Assembly (NCBI RefSeq): GCF_029227855.1
Contig: NZ_CP074356.1
DNA length: 64,000 nt
Reading direction: 5' to 3' (one strand)
From: Escherichia coli
GTDB taxonomy: Bacteria; Pseudomonadota; Gammaproteobacteria; Enterobacterales; Enterobacteriaceae
Below the pieces are notes generated by a model. It was given only the letters and a program-made list of their open reading frames with translations, did not search any database and was not told the DNA's origin. This document shows positions 33,693 through 48,301 of this stretch, piece after piece; position 1 is the first letter of the stretch, and each line of letters begins with the position of its first letter. The translations under genes were made by a program, and so were the position numbers.

Positions 33693-34403
33693 AATAAATA
33701 TCCTCCGGCATAGCCGGAGGTTTTTCAAATGCGCCTATAAGGCTCTCTTACCAGCCGCGCCCTAACAGGCGCACACGATCTGACATTTGCATCCAACTTC
33801 GTTACTTACGGCCCGTAAACGGGCTGCCCGGATAGGGAATCGATAACTGCTCTCCCATTTTATCCTCTTCAAGCTGGTGCTTTATGTAATCCTGTATCTT
33901 CGCCGTGTTCTTACCCACCGTATCGACGTAGTACCCTCTGCACCAGAACTCCCTGTTCCTGTATTTGAATTTCAAATCACCAAACTGCTCGTAAAGCATC
34001 AGACTGCTTTTCCCTTTCAGATATCCCATAAAGCCGGATACGCTCATTTTGGGCGGGATCTCCACAAGCATATGGATATGATCTGCACAGCATTCAGCTT
34101 CCAGAATCCGTACACTTTTCCACTCACACAGCTTTCTCAAAATACTGCCTATTGCTCTACGCTTCTCTCTGTAGAACACCTGTCTTCGGTATTTTGGCGC
34201 AAAAACTATGTGATATTTACAGTTCCATCGGGTGTGCGCTAAGCTCTTTTCGTTCCCCATTGGGACCCCCTTTTGATTTCTTGTTTGACACTTGCAGTTG
34301 CCAGACCGCAAGGTGTTTTAACAAATCAAAAGGGGTTTTAATAACTGGCTTAAAGCTGAAAGCTTTCCGGAACCCCCAGCCTAGCTGGGGGTTTTCTGTG
34401 CAC
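33693..34403 (-). mobile_element. IS200-type insertion sequence (IS200/IS605 family), about 0.7 kb, between the csgA terminator and the csgC RBS
   Basis: Y1/HUH transposase ORF flanked by subterminal hairpins (CCCCCAGC-TA-GCTGGGGG at 34372..34391; CCTCCGGC-ATA-GCCGGAGG at 33702..33720); the csgA-csgC spacer is about 770 bp here against a few tens of bp remembered for K-12. Boundaries are approximate. Confidence 0.8.
33802..34260 (-). CDS. tnpA: IS200 transposase TnpA (Y1 HUH single-strand transposase)
   Basis: ORF 33802..34311; start placed at MGNEKSLAHTRWNCKYHIVFAPKYRR (152 aa); HIHMLV HUH motif. Confidence 0.9.
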   Translation of the reverse strand: MGNEKSLAHTRWNCKYHIVFAPKYRRQVFYREKRRAIGSILRKLCEWKSVRILEAECCADHIHMLVEIPPKMSVSGFMGYLKGKSSLMLYEQFGDLKFKYRNREFWCRGYYVDTVGKNTAKIQDYIKHQLEEDKMGEQLSIPYPGSPFTGRK

Positions 34404-40528: not shown

Positions 40529-41506
<978 letters not shown>

Positions 41507-41700
41507 TTATCGTTATGATCTACAAAAGCCACCAGCATAACAAATCCGTGGTCGGTGGCAAAAAAAGCAGATTTCGCTTATTAAAACTGCATATTGATTG
41601 AAGTTTGAATAAACGCGCGATTTTTTAAAAAAGTTTGTTGACCTCAGGTCATGATTTCCCTAAATTAGCGCCCGTTCCAGCAAGACAGGAACAACAATTT

Positions 41701-41788
41701 GGTGAGGTGTCCGAGTGGCTGAAGGAGCACGCCTGGAAAGTGTGTATACGGCAACGTATCGGGGGTTCGAATCCCCCCCTCACCGCCA
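41701..41788 (+). tRNA. serX: tRNA-Ser (anticodon GGA), serX-type
   Basis: 88-nt GGTGAGGTGTCCGAGTGGCTGAAGGAGCACGCCTGGAAAGTG...GGTTCGAATCCCCCCCTCACCGCCA; long variable arm, encoded CCA; terminator follows. Confidence 0.93.
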
Positions 41789-41799
41789 TATTTAAAGAA

Positions 41800-41830
41800 G
41801 AGCTCGTACGAAAGTACGAGCTTTTTTTTT
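41800..41830 (+). terminator. Rho-independent terminator after serX
   Basis: GAGCTCGTAC-GAAA-GTACGAGCT followed by TTTTTTTTT. Confidence 0.85.
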
Positions 41831-41893
41831 CGTATATTGCATAGACCGGGGGGATGAGAAGCCCCAGGCGGAGGTCGACAACTAGCGACAGAC

Positions 41894-43261
41894 TCATTCA
41901 TCATCCTTGCGGTTGATAAGAATTTCTGCCTCTTTTACTACCACCTTATTACGCCCGGTCTCTTTCGCCTCGTAAAGTGCGTTATCAGCCAGTTGATAGA
42001 TCTCCTTAGGGTTTAACTCATTTTTCTGCGTTACAACAGCGCCAATACTAATCGTCACTTTTTGTGGTATGGCGTATTCAGGATTATCACCAGTTAAACG
42101 CTCAACATTTTCCCGAATCCTTTCCGCTAAAGCTTTCGCACGTTCAGTATCGATGTCCGTCAGCAAGACGCCAAACTCTTCGCCGCCGACGCGCGCAAAA
42201 AGGTCATCTGGCCGTATGCTTTTCCCAATGATACTCACCACTGTTTTTATCACCTGATCGCCAACCGGATGCCCCCAGGTGTCGTTGACTTTTTTGAAGT
42301 GGTCGATATCCATAATCATGACGCAATAAGGCGTTTTTTTGGCCGATGCTGATTGAACTGTCAGTTCATTAAAAAAATAATTTCTGTTAAATATATTGGT
42401 TAAGGAATCGCGATGTGCAATGTCCTTTGTTACTCGTAGCGCACTGAATATATGGCACATAAATATTACCATAACGGTTAACTTACTGACTACTTCAATA
42501 GTGCGACTAATATACCAAATGGACACGCTATACCTGCTCATAAATAAAAGAGAGACATTGTACAGTACGGCACAAAAAGCAATCACCGTCACTCCATTCC
42601 AGATATCACAGCGTAAACCATTAAAGTATAGATTAACTGAAAGCAAGGTTAACCACATGAAAATCATTATGGTAACATATGATGTTTTCCAAACCACCTG
42701 ATCATTTTCATTGGTTAACTCGGCAATGTGTAAATTGTAGCTCTCATAATGACTAGAAAGTATGTGAGCAACTATCGGCCCCCCAACAACAAAAAACAAA
42801 CTTATGCACAAAGTCATTTTTTTAGAAAATAAATTGCGCTGTTTTGTGTTTTCACTAACTTTATTCACCAATGCCAGAAATATTAATATGCACAAACTCA
42901 TCTGACGAAACAAATAATAGATTGCAATGTCATTTTGAACAACACTGCTTGTCAAACGCCCCTCAATAATTTGCTGAATGATAATGACGGTTTTAACAAA
43001 GTAAATCAAACAACTCAGAAAAGCCAAACTAAGTATACAGTTTGAAAATTGCCTACGGTCATAAATGAAATACAACTGCATAAAAATAAATGCAACAGTA
43101 TCGATAAAAAATAAAGCAATCATTACCATCAGATAGGTTGATCGTGGAACAACTTCCTCAACGCCTGGCTGATTAAACCAACTATTCACCAAAACCAAAG
43201 CAAGCCCAAACAATAAGCTCACTAATACAGTACTACTAATTCTCAAATAGTCTTTTTCCAT
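41894..43261 (-). CDS. dgcT: Diguanylate cyclase DgcT (YcdT), membrane sensor with GGDEF domain
   Basis: ORF 41894..43384; start placed at MEKDYLRISSTVLVSLLFGLALVL; GGEEF active-site motif (RVGGEEFGVLL). Confidence 0.9.
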   Translation of the reverse strand: MEKDYLRISSTVLVSLLFGLALVLVNSWFNQPGVEEVVPRSTYLMVMIALFFIDTVAFIFMQLYFIYDRRQFSNCILSLAFLSCLIYFVKTVIIIQQIIEGRLTSSVVQNDIAIYYLFRQMSLCILIFLALVNKVSENTKQRNLFSKKMTLCISLFFVVGGPIVAHILSSHYESYNLHIAELTNENDQVVWKTSYVTIMIFMWLTLLSVNLYFNGLRCDIWNGVTVIAFCAVLYNVSLLFMSRYSVSIWYISRTIEVVSKLTVMVIFMCHIFSALRVTKDIAHRDSLTNIFNRNYFFNELTVQSASAKKTPYCVMIMDIDHFKKVNDTWGHPVGDQVIKTVVSIIGKSIRPDDLFARVGGEEFGVLLTDIDTERAKALAERIRENVERLTGDNPEYAIPQKVTISIGAVVTQKNELNPKEIYQLADNALYEAKETGRNKVVVKEAEILINRKDDE

Positions 43262-43616
43262 AAAGCTACACCAATCTGTAGGTTGTAGATCCCTTTCTAT
43301 TATTAATAGATATAAGAACTGTACTGTTGTCAATATGAAATTCCGCCCACAAACAATACCAATGATGATAGTTGCATACCGCAATTATTATTGCCTTAGT
43401 GCTTTATACATTCTTCGCGACAAGACAGGCTTGCAAATACATATAAATGGTTATAAGGAAATCCTTATAAAACATTAATTCATAGATATATTAGGAATAA
43501 CAATTGAATCCGTGAGTACAGTAACGCTGCACTTCATCAGGACTTTCGAAAAATCGATATCATGCATCGGAATTTACTGATTTAATTATTTTAATCCTAA
43601 TTTATTTTGAAAAAGG

Positions 43617-43850
43617 CATTGGGATTTATGCCGTATTCCTGAAGTTCCTCATCATTGGAATGGATTTTCAGGCGAGAAAAGGATTTTATATGGATACTCT
43701 ACTCATCATTTCTTCTTCTCATCATCAACAATTCACGTCTCTCTTCCGCGTTTAATAACGGATTATGATGTGCAAAAAAAATATCTTTCGTTTCAGTTAC
43801 CTGTAATTAGATACAGAGAGAGATTTTGGCAATACATGGAGTAATACAGG
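43617..43850 (+). promoter_or_regulatory. pgaA promoter and long 5' leader with multiple GGA motifs (candidate CsrA sites)
   Basis: Repeated GGA-containing motifs (GGGATT, AGGATT, ACAGGATG at the RBS) upstream of the pgaA ATG; CsrA control of pgaA is established knowledge. Confidence 0.5.
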
Positions 43851-46274
43851 ATGTATTCAAGTAGCAGAAAAAGGTGCCCGAAAACCAAATGGGCTTTGAA
43901 AATTCTTACTGCCGCATTTTTAGCAGCGAGTCCCGCGGCGAAGAGTGCTGCTAATAATGCCTATGATGCATTGATTATCGAAGCTCGCAAGGGAAATACT
44001 CAGCCAGCTTTGTTATGGTTTGCACAAAAATCAGCACTCAGTAATAACCAAATTGCTGACTGGTTACAGATTGCCTTATGGGCCGGGCAAGATAAACAGG
44101 TTATTACCGTTTACAACCGCTACCGTCATCAGCAATTACCAGCGCGTGGTTATGCAGCTGTCGCCGTCGCTTATCGTAACCTGCAACAATGGCAAAACTC
44201 GCTTACACTGTGGCAAAAGGCACTCTCTCTGGAGTCGCAAAATAAGGATTATCAACGGGGACAAATTTTAACCCTGGCAGATGCGGGTCACTATGATTCT
44301 GCGCTGGTTAAACTTAAGCAGCTTAACTCTGGAGCACCGGACAAAGCTAATTTACTCGCAGAAGCCTATATCTATAAACTGGCGGGGCGGCATGAGGATG
44401 AATTACGGGCGATGACAGGGTCATTACCTGAAAATGCCTTAACGCAACAATATCCCACAGAATACGTGCAGGCATTACGGAATAATCAACTTGCTGCCGC
44501 GATTGACGATGCCAATTTAACGCCAGATATTCGCGCTGATATTCATGCCGAACTGGTCAGACTGTCGTTTATGCCTACGCGCAGTGAAAGTGAACGTTAT
44601 GCCATTGCCGATCGCGCCCTCGCCCAATACGCTGCATTAGAAATTCTGTGGCATGATAACCCTGACCGCACTGCCCAGTACCAGCGTATTCAGGTTGATC
44701 ATCTTGGCGCGTTATTAACTCGCGATCGTTATAAAGACGTTATTTCTCACTATCAGCGTTTAAAAAAGACGGGGCAAATTATTCCGCCCTGGGCGCAATA
44801 TTGGGTTGCGTCGGCTTATCTCAAAGAACATCAGCCAAAAAAAGCACAGTCAATAATGACAGAGCTCTTTTATCACAAGGAGACCATTGCCCCGGATTTA
44901 TCCGATGAAGAACTTGCGGATCTCTTTTACAGCCACCTGGAGAGTGAAAATTATCCCGGCGCGCTAACTGTCACCCAACATACCATTAATACTTCGCCGC
45001 CTTTCCTTCGGTTAATGGGCACGCCTACGAGCATCCCGAATGATACCTGGTTACAGGGGCATTCGTTTCTCTCAACCGTAGCTAAATATAGTAATGATCT
45101 TCCTCAGGCTGAAATGACAGCCAGAGAGCTTGCTTATAACGCACCAGGAAATCAGGGACTGCGCATTGATTACGCGAGTGTGTTACAAGCCCGCGGTTGG
45201 CCTCGTGCGGCAGAAAATGAATTAAAAAAAGCAGAAGTGATCGAGCCACGTAATATTAATCTGGAGGTTGAACAAGCCTGGACAGCATTAACGTTACAAG
45301 AATGGCAGCAGGCAGCGGTCTTAACGCACGATGTTGTCGAACGTGAACCGCAAGATCCCGGCGTTGTACGTTTAAAACGTGCGGTTGATGTACATAATCT
45401 TGCAGAGCTTCGTATCGCTGGCTCAACAGGAATTGATGCCGAAGGTCCGGATAGTGGCAAACATGATGTCGACTTAACCACCATCGTTTATTCACCACCG
45501 CTGAATGATAACTGGCGCGGTTTTGCTGGATTCGGTTATGCCGATGGACAATTTAGCGAAGGAAAAGGGATTATTCGCGACTGGCTTGCGGGTGTTGAGT
45601 GGCGGTCACGTAATATCTGGCTTGAGGCGGAGTACACCGAACGCTTTTTCAATCATGAGCATAAACCCGGCGCGCGCCTGTCTGGCTGGTATGATTTTAA
45701 TGATAACTGGCGTATTGGTTCGCAACTGGAACGCCTCTCTCACCGCGTTCCATTACGGGCAATGAAAAATGGTGTTACAGGCAACAGTGCACAGGCTTAT
45801 GTTCGCTGGTATCAAAATGAGCGGCGTAAGTACGGTGTCTCCTGGGCTTTCACTGATTTTTCTGACAGTAATCAGCGTCATGAAGTCTCACTTGAGGGTC
45901 AGGAACGCATCTGGTCTTCACCATATTTGATTGTCGATTTCCTACCCAATCTGTATTACGAACAAAATACAGAACACGACACTCCATACTACAACCCTAT
46001 AAAAACGTTCGATATTGTTCCGGCATTTGAGGCAAGTCATTTGTTATGGCGTAGCTATGAAAATAGCTGGGAGCAAATCTTCAGCGCAGGTGTTGGTGCC
46101 TCCTGGCAAAAACATTATGGCACGGATGTCGTCACCCAACTCGGCTACGGGCAACGCATTAGCTGGAATGACGTGATTGATGCTGGCGCAACGCTACGCT
46201 GGGAAAAACGACCTTATGACGGTGACAGAGAACACAACTTATACGTTGAATTCGATATGACATTCAGATTTTAA
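43851..46274 (+). CDS. pgaA: Poly-beta-1,6-N-acetylglucosamine export porin PgaA
   Basis: 807 aa ORF, MYSSSRKRCPKTKWALKILTAAFLAASPAA; TPR-like N-half and beta-barrel C-half. Confidence 0.95.
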   Translation: MYSSSRKRCPKTKWALKILTAAFLAASPAAKSAANNAYDALIIEARKGNTQPALLWFAQKSALSNNQIADWLQIALWAGQDKQVITVYNRYRHQQLPARGYAAVAVAYRNLQQWQNSLTLWQKALSLESQNKDYQRGQILTLADAGHYDSALVKLKQLNSGAPDKANLLAEAYIYKLAGRHEDELRAMTGSLPENALTQQYPTEYVQALRNNQLAAAIDDANLTPDIRADIHAELVRLSFMPTRSESERYAIADRALAQYAALEILWHDNPDRTAQYQRIQVDHLGALLTRDRYKDVISHYQRLKKTGQIIPPWAQYWVASAYLKEHQPKKAQSIMTELFYHKETIAPDLSDEELADLFYSHLESENYPGALTVTQHTINTSPPFLRLMGTPTSIPNDTWLQGHSFLSTVAKYSNDLPQAEMTARELAYNAPGNQGLRIDYASVLQARGWPRAAENELKKAEVIEPRNINLEVEQAWTALTLQEWQQAAVLTHDVVEREPQDPGVVRLKRAVDVHNLAELRIAGSTGIDAEGPDSGKHDVDLTTIVYSPPLNDNWRGFAGFGYADGQFSEGKGIIRDWLAGVEWRSRNIWLEAEYTERFFNHEHKPGARLSGWYDFNDNWRIGSQLERLSHRVPLRAMKNGVTGNSAQAYVRWYQNERRKYGVSWAFTDFSDSNQRHEVSLEGQERIWSSPYLIVDFLPNLYYEQNTEHDTPYYNPIKTFDIVPAFEASHLLWRSYENSWEQIFSAGVGASWQKHYGTDVVTQLGYGQRISWNDVIDAGATLRWEKRPYDGDREHNLYVEFDMTFRF

Positions 46275-46282
46275 GGATAAAT

Positions 46283-48301
46283 ATGTTACGTAATGGAAAT
46301 AAATATCTCCTGATGCTGGTGAGTATAATTATGCTCACTGCGTGCATTAGCCAGTCAAGAACATCATTTATACCGCCACAGGATCGCGAATCTTTACTCG
46401 CCGAGCAACCGTGGCCGCATAATGGTTTTGTGGCGATTTCATGGCATAACGTTGAAGACGAAGCTGCCGGCCAGCGTTTTATGTCAGTGCGGACATCAGC
46501 ACTGCGTGAACAATTTGCCTGGCTGCGCGAGAACGGTTATCAACCGGTCAGTATTGCTCAAATTCGTGAAGCACATCAAGGAGGAAAGCCGCTACCGGAA
46601 AAAGCAGTAGTGCTAACTTTTGATGACGGCTACCAGAGTTTTTATACCCGCGTCTTCCCAATTCTTCAGGCCTTCCAGTGGCCTGCTGTATGGGCCCCCG
46701 TCGGCAGTTGGGTCGATACGCCAGCGGATGAACAAGTAAAATTTGGCGATGAGATGGTCGATCGAGAATATTTTGCCACGTGGCAACAAGTGCGAGAAGT
46801 TGCGCGTTCCCGGCTCGTTGAGGTCGCTTCTCATACATGGAATTCTCACTACGGTATTCAGGCTAATGCCACCGGCAGCTTATTGCCTGTATATGTAAAT
46901 CGTGCATATTTTACTGACCACGCACGGTATGAAACCGCAGCAGAATACCGGGAAAGAATTCGTCTGGATGCTGTAAAAATGACGGAATACCTGCGTACAA
47001 AGGCTAAGGTAAATCCACACGTTTTTGTTTGGCCTTATGGCGAAGCGAATGGCATAGCGATAGAGGAATTAAAAAAACTCGGTTATGACATGTTCTTCAC
47101 CCTTGAATCAGGTTTGGCAAATGCGTCACAATTGGATTCCATTCCGCGAGTATTAATCGCCAATAATCCCTCATTAAAAGAGTTTGCCCAGCAAATTATT
47201 ACCGTACAGGAAAAATCACCACAACGGATAATGCATATCGATCTTGATTACGTTTATGACGAAAACCGCCAGCAAATGGATCGCAATATTGATGTGCTAA
47301 TTCAGCGGGTGAAAGATATGCAAATATCAACCGTGTATTTGCAGGCATTTGCTGATCCCGATGGTGATGGGCTGGTCAAAGAGGTCTGGTTTCCAAATCG
47401 TTTGCTACCAATGAAAGCAGATATTTTTAGTCGGGTTGCCTGGCAATTACGTACCCGCTCAGGTGTAAACATCTATGCGTGGATGCCGGTATTAAGCTGG
47501 GATTTAGATCCCACATTAACGCGAGTAAAATACTTACCGACTGGGGAGAAAAAAGCACAAATTCATCCTGAACAATATCGCCGTCTCTCTCCTTTCGATG
47601 ACAGAGTCAGAGCACAAGTTGGCATGTTATATGAAGATCTTGCCGGACATGCTGCTTTTGATGGCATATTGTTCCACGATGATGCTTTGCTTTCAGATTA
47701 TGAAGATGCCAGTGCACCGGCTATCACGGCTTATCAGCAAGCAGGCTTTAGCGGGAGTCTGAGCGAAATTCGACAAAACCCGGAGCAATTTAAACAGTGG
47801 ACCCGCTTTAAAAGTCGTGCGTTAACTGACTTCACTTTAGAACTTAGTGCGCGCGTAAAAGCCATTCGCGGTCCACATGTTAAAACTGCACGAAATATTT
47901 TTGCACTTCCGGTAATACAACCTGAAAGTGAAGCCTGGTTTGCACAGAATTATGCTGATTTCCTAAAAAGCTATGACTGGACCGCTATTATGGCTATGCC
48001 TTATATGGAAGGTGTAGCAGAAAAATCGGCTGACCAATGGTTAATACAATTGACCAATCAAATTAAAAACATCCCTCAGGCTAAAGACAAATCTATTTTA
48101 GAATTACAGGCACAAAACTGGCAGAAAAATGGTCAGCATCAGGCTATTTCTTCGCAACAACTCGCTCACTGGATGAGCCTATTACAACTGAATGGAGTGA
48201 AAAACTATGGTTATTATCCCGACAATTTTCTGCATAACCAACCTGAAATAGACGTTATTCGTCCTGAGTTTTCAACAGCCTGGTATCCGAAAAATGATTA
48301 A
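46283..48301 (+). CDS. pgaB: Poly-beta-1,6-N-acetylglucosamine N-deacetylase lipoprotein PgaB
   Basis: 672 aa [27 protein letters not shown] (lipobox LTAC). Confidence 0.95.

Follow-up and report, generated by a model that had tools for sequence, protein, structure and literature searches.

Genes and intergenic region of the dgcT-pgaA locus

In the 64,000-nucleotide stretch of Escherichia coli DNA analyzed here (the window), the list of open reading frames places dgcT (ycdT) on the minus strand at 41894–43261, with its ATG at 43261–43259, and pgaA on the plus strand at 43851–46274 (807 aa), followed by pgaB at 46283–48301. The 455-residue dgcT product contains MASE4 and GGDEF domains (Pfam, 2.8e-69 and 2e-50, respectively) with a GGEEF motif; PgaA scores 1445 bits against NF007468, for which the cut-off is 1043, and PgaB has a profile score of 1353 bits. 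The divergent reading frames are separated by an intergenic region of 589 bp and 33% GC (43262–43850), exactly the spacer reported in a first-pass annotation of this DNA. Both genes are also annotated by PGAP in a strain having a 99.8% identical spacer, and the spacer is matched in 4,235 of 5,426 complete E. coli genomes, nearly always on the chromosome and between dgcT and pgaA.

The arrangement in K-12 is the same, with a spacer of 586 bp that is ∼94% identical to that of the window, and the window is collinear with K-12 phoH-pgaDCBA-dgcT...serX-ghrA-ycdXYZ-csg, except that the IS3D, ymdE, and ycdU located downstream of dgcT in K-12 are missing here. The earlier description of the module as adjacent to the curli locus is loosely true only: by collinearity with K-12, the end of csgG lies ∼3.4 kb past the 3' end of dgcT, and serX, ghrA, ycdX, ycdY, and ycdZ occupy the interval. 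Judged by sequence, this spacer and the one between dgcT and pgaA in E. coli K-12 are orthologous, and nothing found contradicts this identification. The K-12 pgaABCD promoter and leader were reportedly studied in Wang et al. 2005 and Goller et al. 2006, and also by Figueroa-Bossi et al. 2014 (PMC4052769). The region and its CsrA/Rho/NhaR biology are already established for K-12, and the window brings no new principle; what the present analysis yields is a map, by coordinate, of the known elements in the window allele. CsrA binding, Rho termination, and NhaR activation are taken from published work on K-12, the coordinates, orthology, GGA content, and conservation were computed here, and the matching of individual sites to motifs is inferred.

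Conservation across the intergenic region

The comparison set comprised two divergent Escherichia dgcT-pgaA modules and two Citrobacter loci; a PgaA search of genome contigs gave four loci, and more were added through a protein search and contig look-ups. Conservation is maximal over the promoter (−80 to +20 relative to the pgaA start), in the leader from +40 to +140, from +200 to the AUG, and in the dgcT-proximal 75 bp. The −80 to +20 peak is visible even in copies that are otherwise 50–60% identical. The AT-rich central spacer (43336–43530), to which no feature is assigned, is poorly conserved: it is ∼10% diverged from K-12, mostly has 5–9 variable columns per 30 among six core E. coli alleles, and is 43–73% identical, mostly 43–63%, to the island copy of dgcT-pgaA.

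The spacer is long by the standard of divergent pairs and includes a 47-aa open reading frame on the plus strand at 43335–43478, which might suggest that its length is due to a hidden, unannotated gene for a small protein or an sRNA. Such a gene is highly improbable. The open reading frame was rejected as a gene because it is frameshifted in both K-12 and LR-62-2, and it sits where the spacer is least conserved; the RefSeq annotation of the spacer is empty in K-12 and in the nearest strain; and a leader of 237 nt, a promoter of ∼100 bp, and ∼75 bp on the dgcT side together make up ∼70% of the spacer length. An Rfam scan of 41500–45000 (E ≤ 1) gave no credible match in the spacer, the only one being a 20-bit chance match to a microRNA. 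The same scan found the serX tRNA, outside the spacer.

The pgaA promoter and a probable NhaR dyad

In K-12, pgaABCD is transcribed from one promoter, which is activated by NhaR, with a leader of 234 nt (PMC4052769, PMC7652899). Alignment to K-12 would place the corresponding start of the window allele at 43614 on the plus strand, and the K-12 leader, measured from the position aligned with it, comes to exactly 234 nt, identical to the published length. That the start might instead lie close to the ATG, an objection raised in the first-pass annotation itself, is made unlikely by the published leader length and single promoter together with the conservation peak at −80 to +20. Transcription of pgaABCD would thus begin at a single weak promoter with a candidate −10 hexamer, TATTTT, at 43603–43608 on the plus strand, −11 to −6 of the mapped start. 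The hexamer is TATAGT in Citrobacter, and its T, A, T, and final T are kept across genera. A sigma-70 scan of the spacer gave no strong plus-strand promoter for pgaA, a weak signal being expected for an activator-dependent promoter.

The LysR-type activator NhaR would be needed at this promoter, with probable sites at a dyad box upstream and at a second position over the −35 region. The dyad box, TCGAAAAAT-CGA, lies at about −68 to −57 (43546–43557, plus strand), the T-N11-A dyad being at −69 to −57, and resembles TCgaAAAAatCtA, the consensus proposed for NhaR (PMC6307784). The dyad recurs in K-12, B2 strains, the island copy, L012, and Citrobacter, the last with symmetrical changes in its two arms (TCA...TGA), and it is probably the upstream NhaR site. 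The plain consensus pattern is uninformative by itself because it occurs 20 times in the window, where 21.6 occurrences are expected, and none of these is in the pgaA promoter of this allele. In comparison with K-12 TCGAAAAATCCGA (T-N11-A), the window dyad carries one substitution and a 1-bp deletion that leaves T-N10-A, and no more than 3 genomes among 4,219 complete ones of E. coli have the deletion allele. The deletion could weaken NhaR activation, and this rare change in the promoter could make the lineage a natural NhaR-site variant.

GGA motifs of the pgaA leader

The predicted pgaA 5' leader of the window allele extends over 237 nt on the plus strand (43614–43850). Six bases are substituted relative to the K-12 leader and 3 nt are inserted, the latter in a run of A8 at 43774–43781 that is A5 in K-12, and the two are ∼97% identical overall; the last 60 nt before the pgaA AUG are identical. 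The comparison with the K-12 leader, proposed at first pass, gives orthologous leaders of 237 and 234 nt with identical GGAs. Plus-strand GGAs start at 43622, 43657, 43662, 43681, 43692, 43760, 43838, and 43849, confirming the repeated GGA motifs noted earlier in the pgaA-proximal stretch: eight in 237 nt, one of them in the Shine-Dalgarno sequence and another overlapping the AUG. In 240 nt, this count compares with a mononucleotide expectation of 2.5 and a dinucleotide-shuffle mean of 4.6 (P = 0.02), and it is reached by 1% of 240-nt windows on either strand of the 64 kb. The upstream 352 bp of the spacer are unenriched (4 GGA vs 2.7 expected, P = 0.25). The enrichment in the leader is real, although statistically moderate only; the GGA evidence gains its weight from the homology with the leader tested in K-12 and from the conserved positions of the motifs.

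An excess of this moderate size might be put down to chance composition in a leader that is AT-rich and biased toward purines, in which only the Shine-Dalgarno GGA matters and CsrA has no role. Consistent with that reading, the GGAs at +9, +44, and +49 are probably unpublished as sites, those at +79 and +147 are missing in the island copy of dgcT-pgaA, and a Leclercia pgaA homologue has no GGA at all in 240 nt. However, the K-12 leader to which the present one is so nearly identical has been footprinted and toeprinted with CsrA and tested by mutation, the two leaders have the same eight GGAs, and four GGAs keep their positions in Citrobacter amid diverged sequence, which makes an accident of composition exceedingly unlikely.

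Under the preferred reading, in which CsrA acts on the leader, the GGAs can be set beside the published sites. Six CsrA sites are bound in the K-12 leader (PMC4052769), and, going by secondary sources, these six footprinted sites are probably five of the eight GGAs plus one AGAGA site. The two 5'-proximal sites are AAGGA (43681) and AUGGA (43692). The GGA at +147 (43760–43762, plus strand, within AACGGAUU) is probably site 3; ACGGA is among the primary CsrA motifs of a literature motif list for which pgaA was a training target. Site 4 is probably the non-GGA element AGAGAGAGA at 43816–43824, AGAGA being given as a secondary CsrA site in the literature list, with Wang 2005 as the source. Sites 5 and 6 would correspond to the Shine-Dalgarno GGAG (43838–43841, within AUGGAG at 43836–43841) and to GGAUG over the pgaA start codon (43849–43853, within CAGGAUG at 43847–43853), and both of the longer motifs match K-12 exactly. 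The Shine-Dalgarno GGAG is identical in all Escherichia-type copies, with a GGA at −12 in Citrobacter, and UACAGGAUG at the start codon is invariant in Escherichia-type and Citrobacter copies alike. The three GGAs at +9, +44, and +49 probably fall outside the published sites; the latter two (UUGGAAUGGA, 43657–43664, plus strand) are present in the core alleles and the island copy and missing in Citrobacter and L012.

The published anti-terminator hairpin and the leader open reading frame

The published K-12 hairpin spans +61 to +107, with two CsrA sites on its left arm and a rut site on its right, and CsrA together with Rho causes transcription termination in the leader in vitro and in vivo (PMC4052769). 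In the window the left arm (+61 to +81), carrying AAGGA and AUGGA, is at 43674–43694 on the plus strand, and the right arm follows at 43695–43720, changed from the K-12 sequence at two positions (43695 C>T and 43701 G>A). A C-over-G bubble extends over ∼+50 to +130 (43663–43743, plus strand), with GC skew falling to −0.56 at 43682–43759, and its position fits the bubble described for the rut region (PMC4052769). The left-arm CsrA pair, a weak hairpin, and a C-rich right arm are thus all present as sequence elements. A pair of GGAs 10–11 nt apart opens the C-rich tract in all three Escherichia-type lineages.

Thermodynamic and comparative analyses lend little to the hairpin itself. Its predicted fold has an energy of −6.0 kcal/mol in the window and −6.4 kcal/mol in K-12, a stability no greater than that of shuffled sequence (z = −0.2 and −0.5, respectively), and an RNAalifold consensus with the island copy and Citrobacter contains zero pairs for it. 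The role of the hairpin in the mechanism may be confined to core E. coli alleles.

The same interval includes a 21-codon open reading frame (MDTLLIISSSHHQQFTSLFRV*) at 43690–43755 on the plus strand, described as encoding a putative leader peptide, the AUG of which could be mutated without effect, in a fusion moved into Salmonella (PMC4052769). The upstream CsrA pair might act through this reading frame rather than through an RNA hairpin: translating ribosomes would mask the rut site, and CsrA bound at AAGGA and the AUG would stop translation and allow Rho to load. AAGGA lies 7 nt upstream of the AUG, a good spacing, and the reading frame overlaps the C-rich tract. AAAGGAUUUnAUAUG, invariant in the Escherichia-type lineages and Citrobacter, is the best-conserved leader element between genera, and the AUG persists where the second GGA does not (AUGAA in the island copy, AUGAG and AUGAC in Citrobacter). 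Both substitutions separating the window from K-12 within the reading frame are synonymous, and the hairpin is unsupported, comparatively or thermodynamically, beyond core E. coli. The length of the reading frame is likewise similar among Escherichia-type lineages, although its persistence is weak evidence because a pyrimidine-rich tract has no stop codons in any case. Against this, mutants stabilizing and destabilizing the hairpin fitted the RNA model (PMC4052769), the reading frames in Citrobacter encode unrelated peptides of 20 and 10 aa, and in L012 the AUG is only 1 nt after the nearest GGA, a poor spacing. Action through the leader reading frame is therefore considered very unlikely. A role for the peptide as such, examined across five lineages, was rejected, since the peptide is unconserved outside the Escherichia-type copies and the published AUG mutant is negative; a literature search on a pgaA uORF or leader peptide returned nothing relevant.

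A predicted hairpin at the 5' end of the leader

At the extreme 5' end, a predicted hairpin with stem GGCAU/AUGCC (43615–43632, plus strand) presents UGGGAUUU, including the GGA at +9, in its loop. The predicted fold has an energy of −6.7 kcal/mol and accounts for 90% of the ensemble. The island copy, L012, and Citrobacter all retain the stem and the GGA of its loop, one base pair showing a double change of G-C to A-U, and 83% of cells are paired in comparison with at most 53% in shifted registers. The loop GGA is apparently outside the six published CsrA sites. A combined proposal, in which the dyad deletion weakens or uncouples salt/alkali induction of PGA by NhaR and the 5' hairpin is a seventh CsrA site or a 5'-end stability element, is possible but tentative, and as a whole would seem rather more doubtful than probable.

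The dgcT side of the spacer

On the opposite strand, a short stretch of conserved sequence containing one GGA would supply the promoter and leader of dgcT. The dgcT-proximal block (43262–43335) is 73–80% identical to the island copy of dgcT-pgaA. Within it, AAAGGGAUC (43288–43296, minus strand) has its GGA 29–31 nt upstream of the dgcT AUG, the sole GGA within 80 nt upstream, and is unchanged in all E. coli alleles examined and in the island copy. Because ycdT (dgcT) is reported to be a CsrA target with a single site (PMC4066749, PMC6028588), AAAGGGAUC is a candidate for that site. A perfect TTGACA at 43328–43333 on the minus strand is tentatively read as the dgcT −35 element; TTGTCAATAT at this position is invariant among the aligned alleles, and the promoter scan found no normally spaced −10 for it. 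A minus-strand 'promoter' and 'terminator' returned by scans of the spacer were discarded as chance, the terminator being the 5' leader hairpin read backwards.

A probable layered control region and its relatives

Taken together, conservation in the region extends to the dyad of the promoter, the GGA hairpin at the 5' end, AAAGGAUUUnAUAUG, and the Shine-Dalgarno and AUG GGAs, whereas the paired left and right arms of the anti-terminator hairpin and the GGAs at +79 and +147 are without such conservation. The comparison across lineages supports a K-12-like layout as judged by alignment, and it is very likely, by analogy with the nearly identical K-12 leader, that the region works as described there: a promoter activated by NhaR, a leader subject to CsrA and Rho, and a block of translation by CsrA. 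The 237-nt leader RNA would hold multiple CsrA sites. CsrA bound to the AAGGA/AUGGA pair would prevent the weak hairpin at 43674–43720 from folding, so that the C-rich Rho-loading site would be exposed and Rho would terminate transcription within the leader. Transcripts that escape would have their translation stopped by CsrA on the Shine-Dalgarno GGA (43838) and the AUG GGA (43849), as in K-12, where CsrA stops translation from the pair of sites closest to the AUG (PMC4052769, PMC7652899). Since CsrA is reported to target dgcT as well, the PGA synthesis proteins and a diguanylate cyclase would both increase when CsrA activity is low, and c-di-GMP, the product of the cyclase, activates the PgaCD synthase (PMC7652899).

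The first-pass reading of the GGA-rich leader as consistent with translational repression by CsrA is thus borne out by homology to K-12 but is an incomplete account: it omits Rho-dependent attenuation, NhaR, and the probability that only five of the GGAs are footprinted CsrA sites. The region, which couples c-di-GMP synthesis to production of the PGA biofilm, is among the best-worked examples of layered post-transcriptional control, with CsrA acting on transcription elongation, translation, and mRNA stability.

The CsrA-bound leaders of glgC, cstA, nhaR, and ydeH/dgcZ resemble that of pgaA in having multiple A(N)GGA motifs, including one that covers the Shine-Dalgarno sequence, and in being repressed through competition with the ribosome (PMC4066749, PMC6028588). 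The pgaA leader differs from them in having the most reported sites and, in addition, CsrA-induced Rho termination via RNA remodelling (PMC4052769, PMC7652899). In Klebsiella pneumoniae, a regulatory spacer between pgaR (csgD-like) and pgaA lies just upstream of pgaABCD, and natural variants of this spacer alter PNAG output (bioRxiv 10.64898/2026.03.13.711557). The upstream gene there is a transcriptional activator and not a diguanylate cyclase, and the two spacers are likened by description only.

Closer relatives of the module are found at L007/L008, with 80% identical PgaA, and at L012, with 76% identical PgaA. As in the window, a MASE4-GGDEF gene is divergent to pgaA at these loci, which likewise have the promoter block, the 5' hairpin with its loop GGA, the leader open reading frame, and the Shine-Dalgarno and AUG GGAs. 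In K-12, the window features with direct counterparts are the aligned transcription start, the GGAs, the hairpin arms, the C-rich rut tract, and the leader open reading frame. The chromosomal sites of the other modules differ from that of the window, the LF4-1 module being beside an integrase and RtT and that of L012 beside a CadC-like gene, and the central spacer of the other Escherichia-type modules is unrelated to that of the window. The LF4-1 leader also differs in containing a 22-nt unit in three copies.

Gene arrangement and the window allele

The minus-strand ORF at 41894–43261 encodes a MASE4-GGDEF protein of 455 aa that carries a GGEEF motif and is named dgcT by PGAP in a strain with a 99.8% identical spacer; the plus-strand ORF at 43851–46274 is pgaA (1445 bits to NF007468, cut-off 1043), with PgaB encoded downstream (1353 bits). 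The 589-bp spacer reported in the first-pass annotation is exact (43262–43850); it has a GC content of 33%, and K-12 MG1655 has the same gene arrangement with a spacer of 586 bp. Gene order is collinear with K-12 phoH-pgaDCBA-dgcT...serX-ghrA-ycdXYZ-csgGFED-csgBAC in reversed orientation. The curli locus, previously called adjacent, is only near, because the serX tRNA gene and four protein-coding genes (∼3.4 kb) separate dgcT from csgG. A 47-aa spacer ORF was rejected as a gene, being frameshifted in other alleles; Rfam gave no match within the spacer, and matches from a promoter/terminator scan of it, all on the minus strand, were discarded as chance level.

The spacer is matched in 4,235 of 5,426 complete E. 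coli genomes, the majority at 90–95% identity, and the window spacer is a minority allele since just 40 matches reach at least 99%. Plasmid-labelled records hold 7 of 4,267 spacer matches in complete E. coli genomes. Aligned differences from the K-12 spacer cluster in mid-spacer. The K-12 pgaA leader is 234 nt long as Wang et al. (2005) are quoted in PMC4052769, and +1 was placed 234 nt back from the K-12 AUG and carried over the alignment to window 43614. Counted from +1, the K-12 leader is exactly 234 nt and that of the window 237 nt, because the A5 run of K-12 is A8 here. Set against the characterized K-12 leader, the window leader is orthologous, differing otherwise by six substitutions, none in a GGA, and the final 60 nt before the AUG are the same. 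The earlier reading of a CsrA-controlled leader is borne out by this identity together with the published CsrA mechanism. The region is the textbook pgaABCD leader under CsrA, NhaR and Rho control, next to a divergent CsrA-regulated diguanylate cyclase gene, and the finding is therefore already known.

GGA motifs and the published CsrA layout

Repeated GGA motifs near pgaA, including one at the ribosome-binding site, had been noted, and eight are indeed present in 240 nt, starting on the plus strand at 43622, 43657, 43662, 43681, 43692, 43760, 43838 (within the Shine-Dalgarno AUGGAG) and 43849 (spanning the start codon, CAGGAUG). Base composition predicts 2.5 and dinucleotide-preserving shuffles give 4.6 (P = 0.02), and just 1% of 240-nt windows across the whole 64-kb sequence reach at least eight. 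On statistics alone the enrichment is moderate; the remainder of the spacer has no GGA enrichment.

Six CsrA sites are described in the pgaA leader, where a weak, interrupted hairpin at +61 to +107 carries the two 5'-proximal sites in its left arm (+61 to +81) and the 5' half of a C-rich Rho-loading site in its right arm; CsrA binding opens the hairpin, leading to Rho termination inside the leader (Figueroa-Bossi et al., 2014; PMC4052769). CsrA bound at the pair of sites next to the start codon blocks translation (PMC4052769, PMC7652899). By this K-12 layout the plus-strand left arm lies at 43674–43694, with AAGGA (GGA 43681) and AUGGA (GGA 43692), and the right arm at 43695–43720; a plus-strand C-over-G bubble extends over 43682–43759 (GC skew down to −0.56). 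The K-12 segment at the corresponding place, GAGAAAAGGAUUUUAUAUGGA / CACUCUGCUCAUCAUUUCUUCUUCUC, agrees with the published hairpin description. Primary CsrA motifs are AAGGA, ACGGA, AUGGA and AGGA, with AGAGA secondary, according to a secondary source citing the pgaA paper. This list, together with the placement of the first two sites in +61 to +81, suggests to us that the six sites are +68 AAGGA, +79 AUGGA, +147 ACGGA, the AGAGAGAGA run (43816–24), the Shine-Dalgarno GGA and the AUG-overlapping GGA; the GGAs at +9, +44 and +49 would then be extra. The single pgaABCD promoter is activated by NhaR, itself CsrA-repressed (PMC4052769, PMC7652899); McaS, CsrB and CsrC act through CsrA titration, PgaCD synthase is activated by c-di-GMP, and GGDEF genes are also CsrA-repressed (PMC7652899), ycdT/dgcT being listed as a single-site CsrA target (PMC4066749, PMC6028588).

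Comparative conservation

The comparison covered five further core E. coli alleles (six core alleles with the window), a divergent dgcT-pgaABCD module that adjoins an integrase in strain LF4-1 and also occurs in SCPM-O-B-8794 (the island copy; PgaA 80% identical, DgcT 77%), a third dgcT-linked lineage, L012 (PgaA 76%), two Citrobacter loci with an MCP gene in place of dgcT (PgaA 72–74%), and, further removed, loci of Leclercia, Enterobacter and a metagenome. Sliding identity of the window to the island copy reveals four conserved blocks: the dgcT-proximal 75 bp (73–80%), the pgaA promoter from −80 to +20 (77–90%), the leader from about +40 to +140 (63–83%), and the 35 nt immediately preceding the AUG (90%). 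Identity is mostly 43–60% in the central spacer and at leader +142 to +200, with 73% in one sliding window. All eight GGAs are retained in the six core alleles, four are position-conserved in Citrobacter (the +9 GGA, AAAGGAUUU, the near-Shine-Dalgarno GGA and CAGGAUG), and a GGA pair 10–11 nt apart just 5' of the C-rich tract occurs in all three Escherichia-type lineages; the 240 nt upstream of Leclercia pgaA have no GGA. This conservation pattern lends support to the published start site and CsrA layout and, as far as sequence allows, counters a start close to the ATG, which would exclude most GGAs from the mRNA.

The two divergent dgcT-pgaABCD modules of Escherichia-type genomes occupy L007 1–6097 and L008 552–4918 (PgaA 80%) and L012 561–4924 (PgaA 76%). 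The LF4-1 module adjoins a tyrosine recombinase gene and an RtT sRNA, which suggests that the cyclase gene and the pga operon move together as one unit. In LF4-1 the leader carries the 22-nt unit CCCGTAGTCCTTCCCTTTTGGG in three tandem copies, and L008 has one. In the Enterobacter cloacae locus, L015, a 78-aa ORF without a Pfam match lies directly 5' of pgaA (2232–2468), and twelve GGAs occur in the 330 nt before pgaA, two of them beside its start.

Anti-terminator hairpin and leader ORF

The stability of the anti-terminator hairpin does not exceed that of shuffled sequence (z = −0.2 for the window, −0.5 for K-12), and RNAalifold finds no common structure once island and Citrobacter sequences are added. 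The best-conserved element in the hairpin region, AAAGGAUUUnAUAUG, looks like the ribosome-binding site and start codon of a putative 21-codon leader ORF (43690–43755), which keeps its AUG even in copies that lack the second GGA. These features and the poorly supported hairpin bring back an alternative in which CsrA prevents the leader ORF from being translated and thereby exposes rut. We nevertheless consider this very improbable: when the authors of PMC4052769 tested the idea, mutation of the AUG was without effect, and their structure mutants matched the predictions of the RNA model. Moreover, the encoded peptides are unrelated in Citrobacter, RBS-AUG spacing is poor in L012, and the pyrimidine tract is stop-free anyway. 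Opening of the hairpin by CsrA remains the preferred reading.

Promoter dyad and 5'-terminal hairpin

A dyad at −69 to −57 in K-12, TCGAAAAATCCGA, forms a T-N11-A box that is retained in B2 strains, the island copy and L012 (TCGAAAAAACCGA), and both of its arms are symmetrically changed in Citrobacter (TCAAAAAAACTGA). Goller in 2006 reportedly described a second NhaR site "immediately upstream" of a site overlapping −35, and the dyad lies where this second site would be. The dyad, ∼60 bp 5' of the pgaA start, is probably this upstream NhaR site, and its K-12-type form resembles the NhaR consensus proposed by Krol, TCgaAAAAatCtA (PMC6307784). In the window the dyad (43546–43557) reads TCGAAAAAT-CGA, with a 1-bp deletion (CC to C) that brings the arms one base closer. 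One further genome, JNEC-KY178, carries the exact 73-nt deletion allele over its entire length, and at most 3 of the 4,219 complete E. coli genomes with the region have it. The deletion is probably real and not an artefact, because two independent assemblies share the allele; it may be new, and is a modest lead rather than a discovery.

At the leader start, a plus-strand hairpin GGCAU-UGGGAUUU-AUGCC (43615–43632) has a predicted energy of −6.7 kcal/mol and makes up 90% of the ensemble. Its stem and loop GGA are retained in all Escherichia-type and Citrobacter copies, with one G-C to A-U double change, and pairing is 83% versus at most 53% in shifted registers (five sequences, for which a shuffle control is uninformative). 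Classical high-affinity CsrA targets present a GGA in a hairpin loop, and the GGA here, at +9, is distinct from the published K-12 5'-proximal pair at +61 to +81. The conserved hairpin may likewise be new, again as a modest lead and not a discovery. On the minus strand, with a neighboring T-run, it receives a terminator-like score, probably a by-product.

Neighboring differences from K-12

Directly after dgcT, 41701–41893 contains serX (tRNA-Ser), and IS3D, ymdE and ycdU of K-12 are missing. The stretch 41770–41891 (the serX 3' end and sequence beyond) has three additional copies (81–122 nt) in K-12, reminiscent of repeated attachment sites. The final ∼35 nt of K-12 dgcT before the stop cannot be aligned with the window (452 aa versus 455 aa). 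Between csgA and csgC, an insertion of ∼705 bp (∼33699–34403), not in K-12, codes for an IS200-type Y1 transposase (Pfam Y1_Tnp, 3.8e-38).
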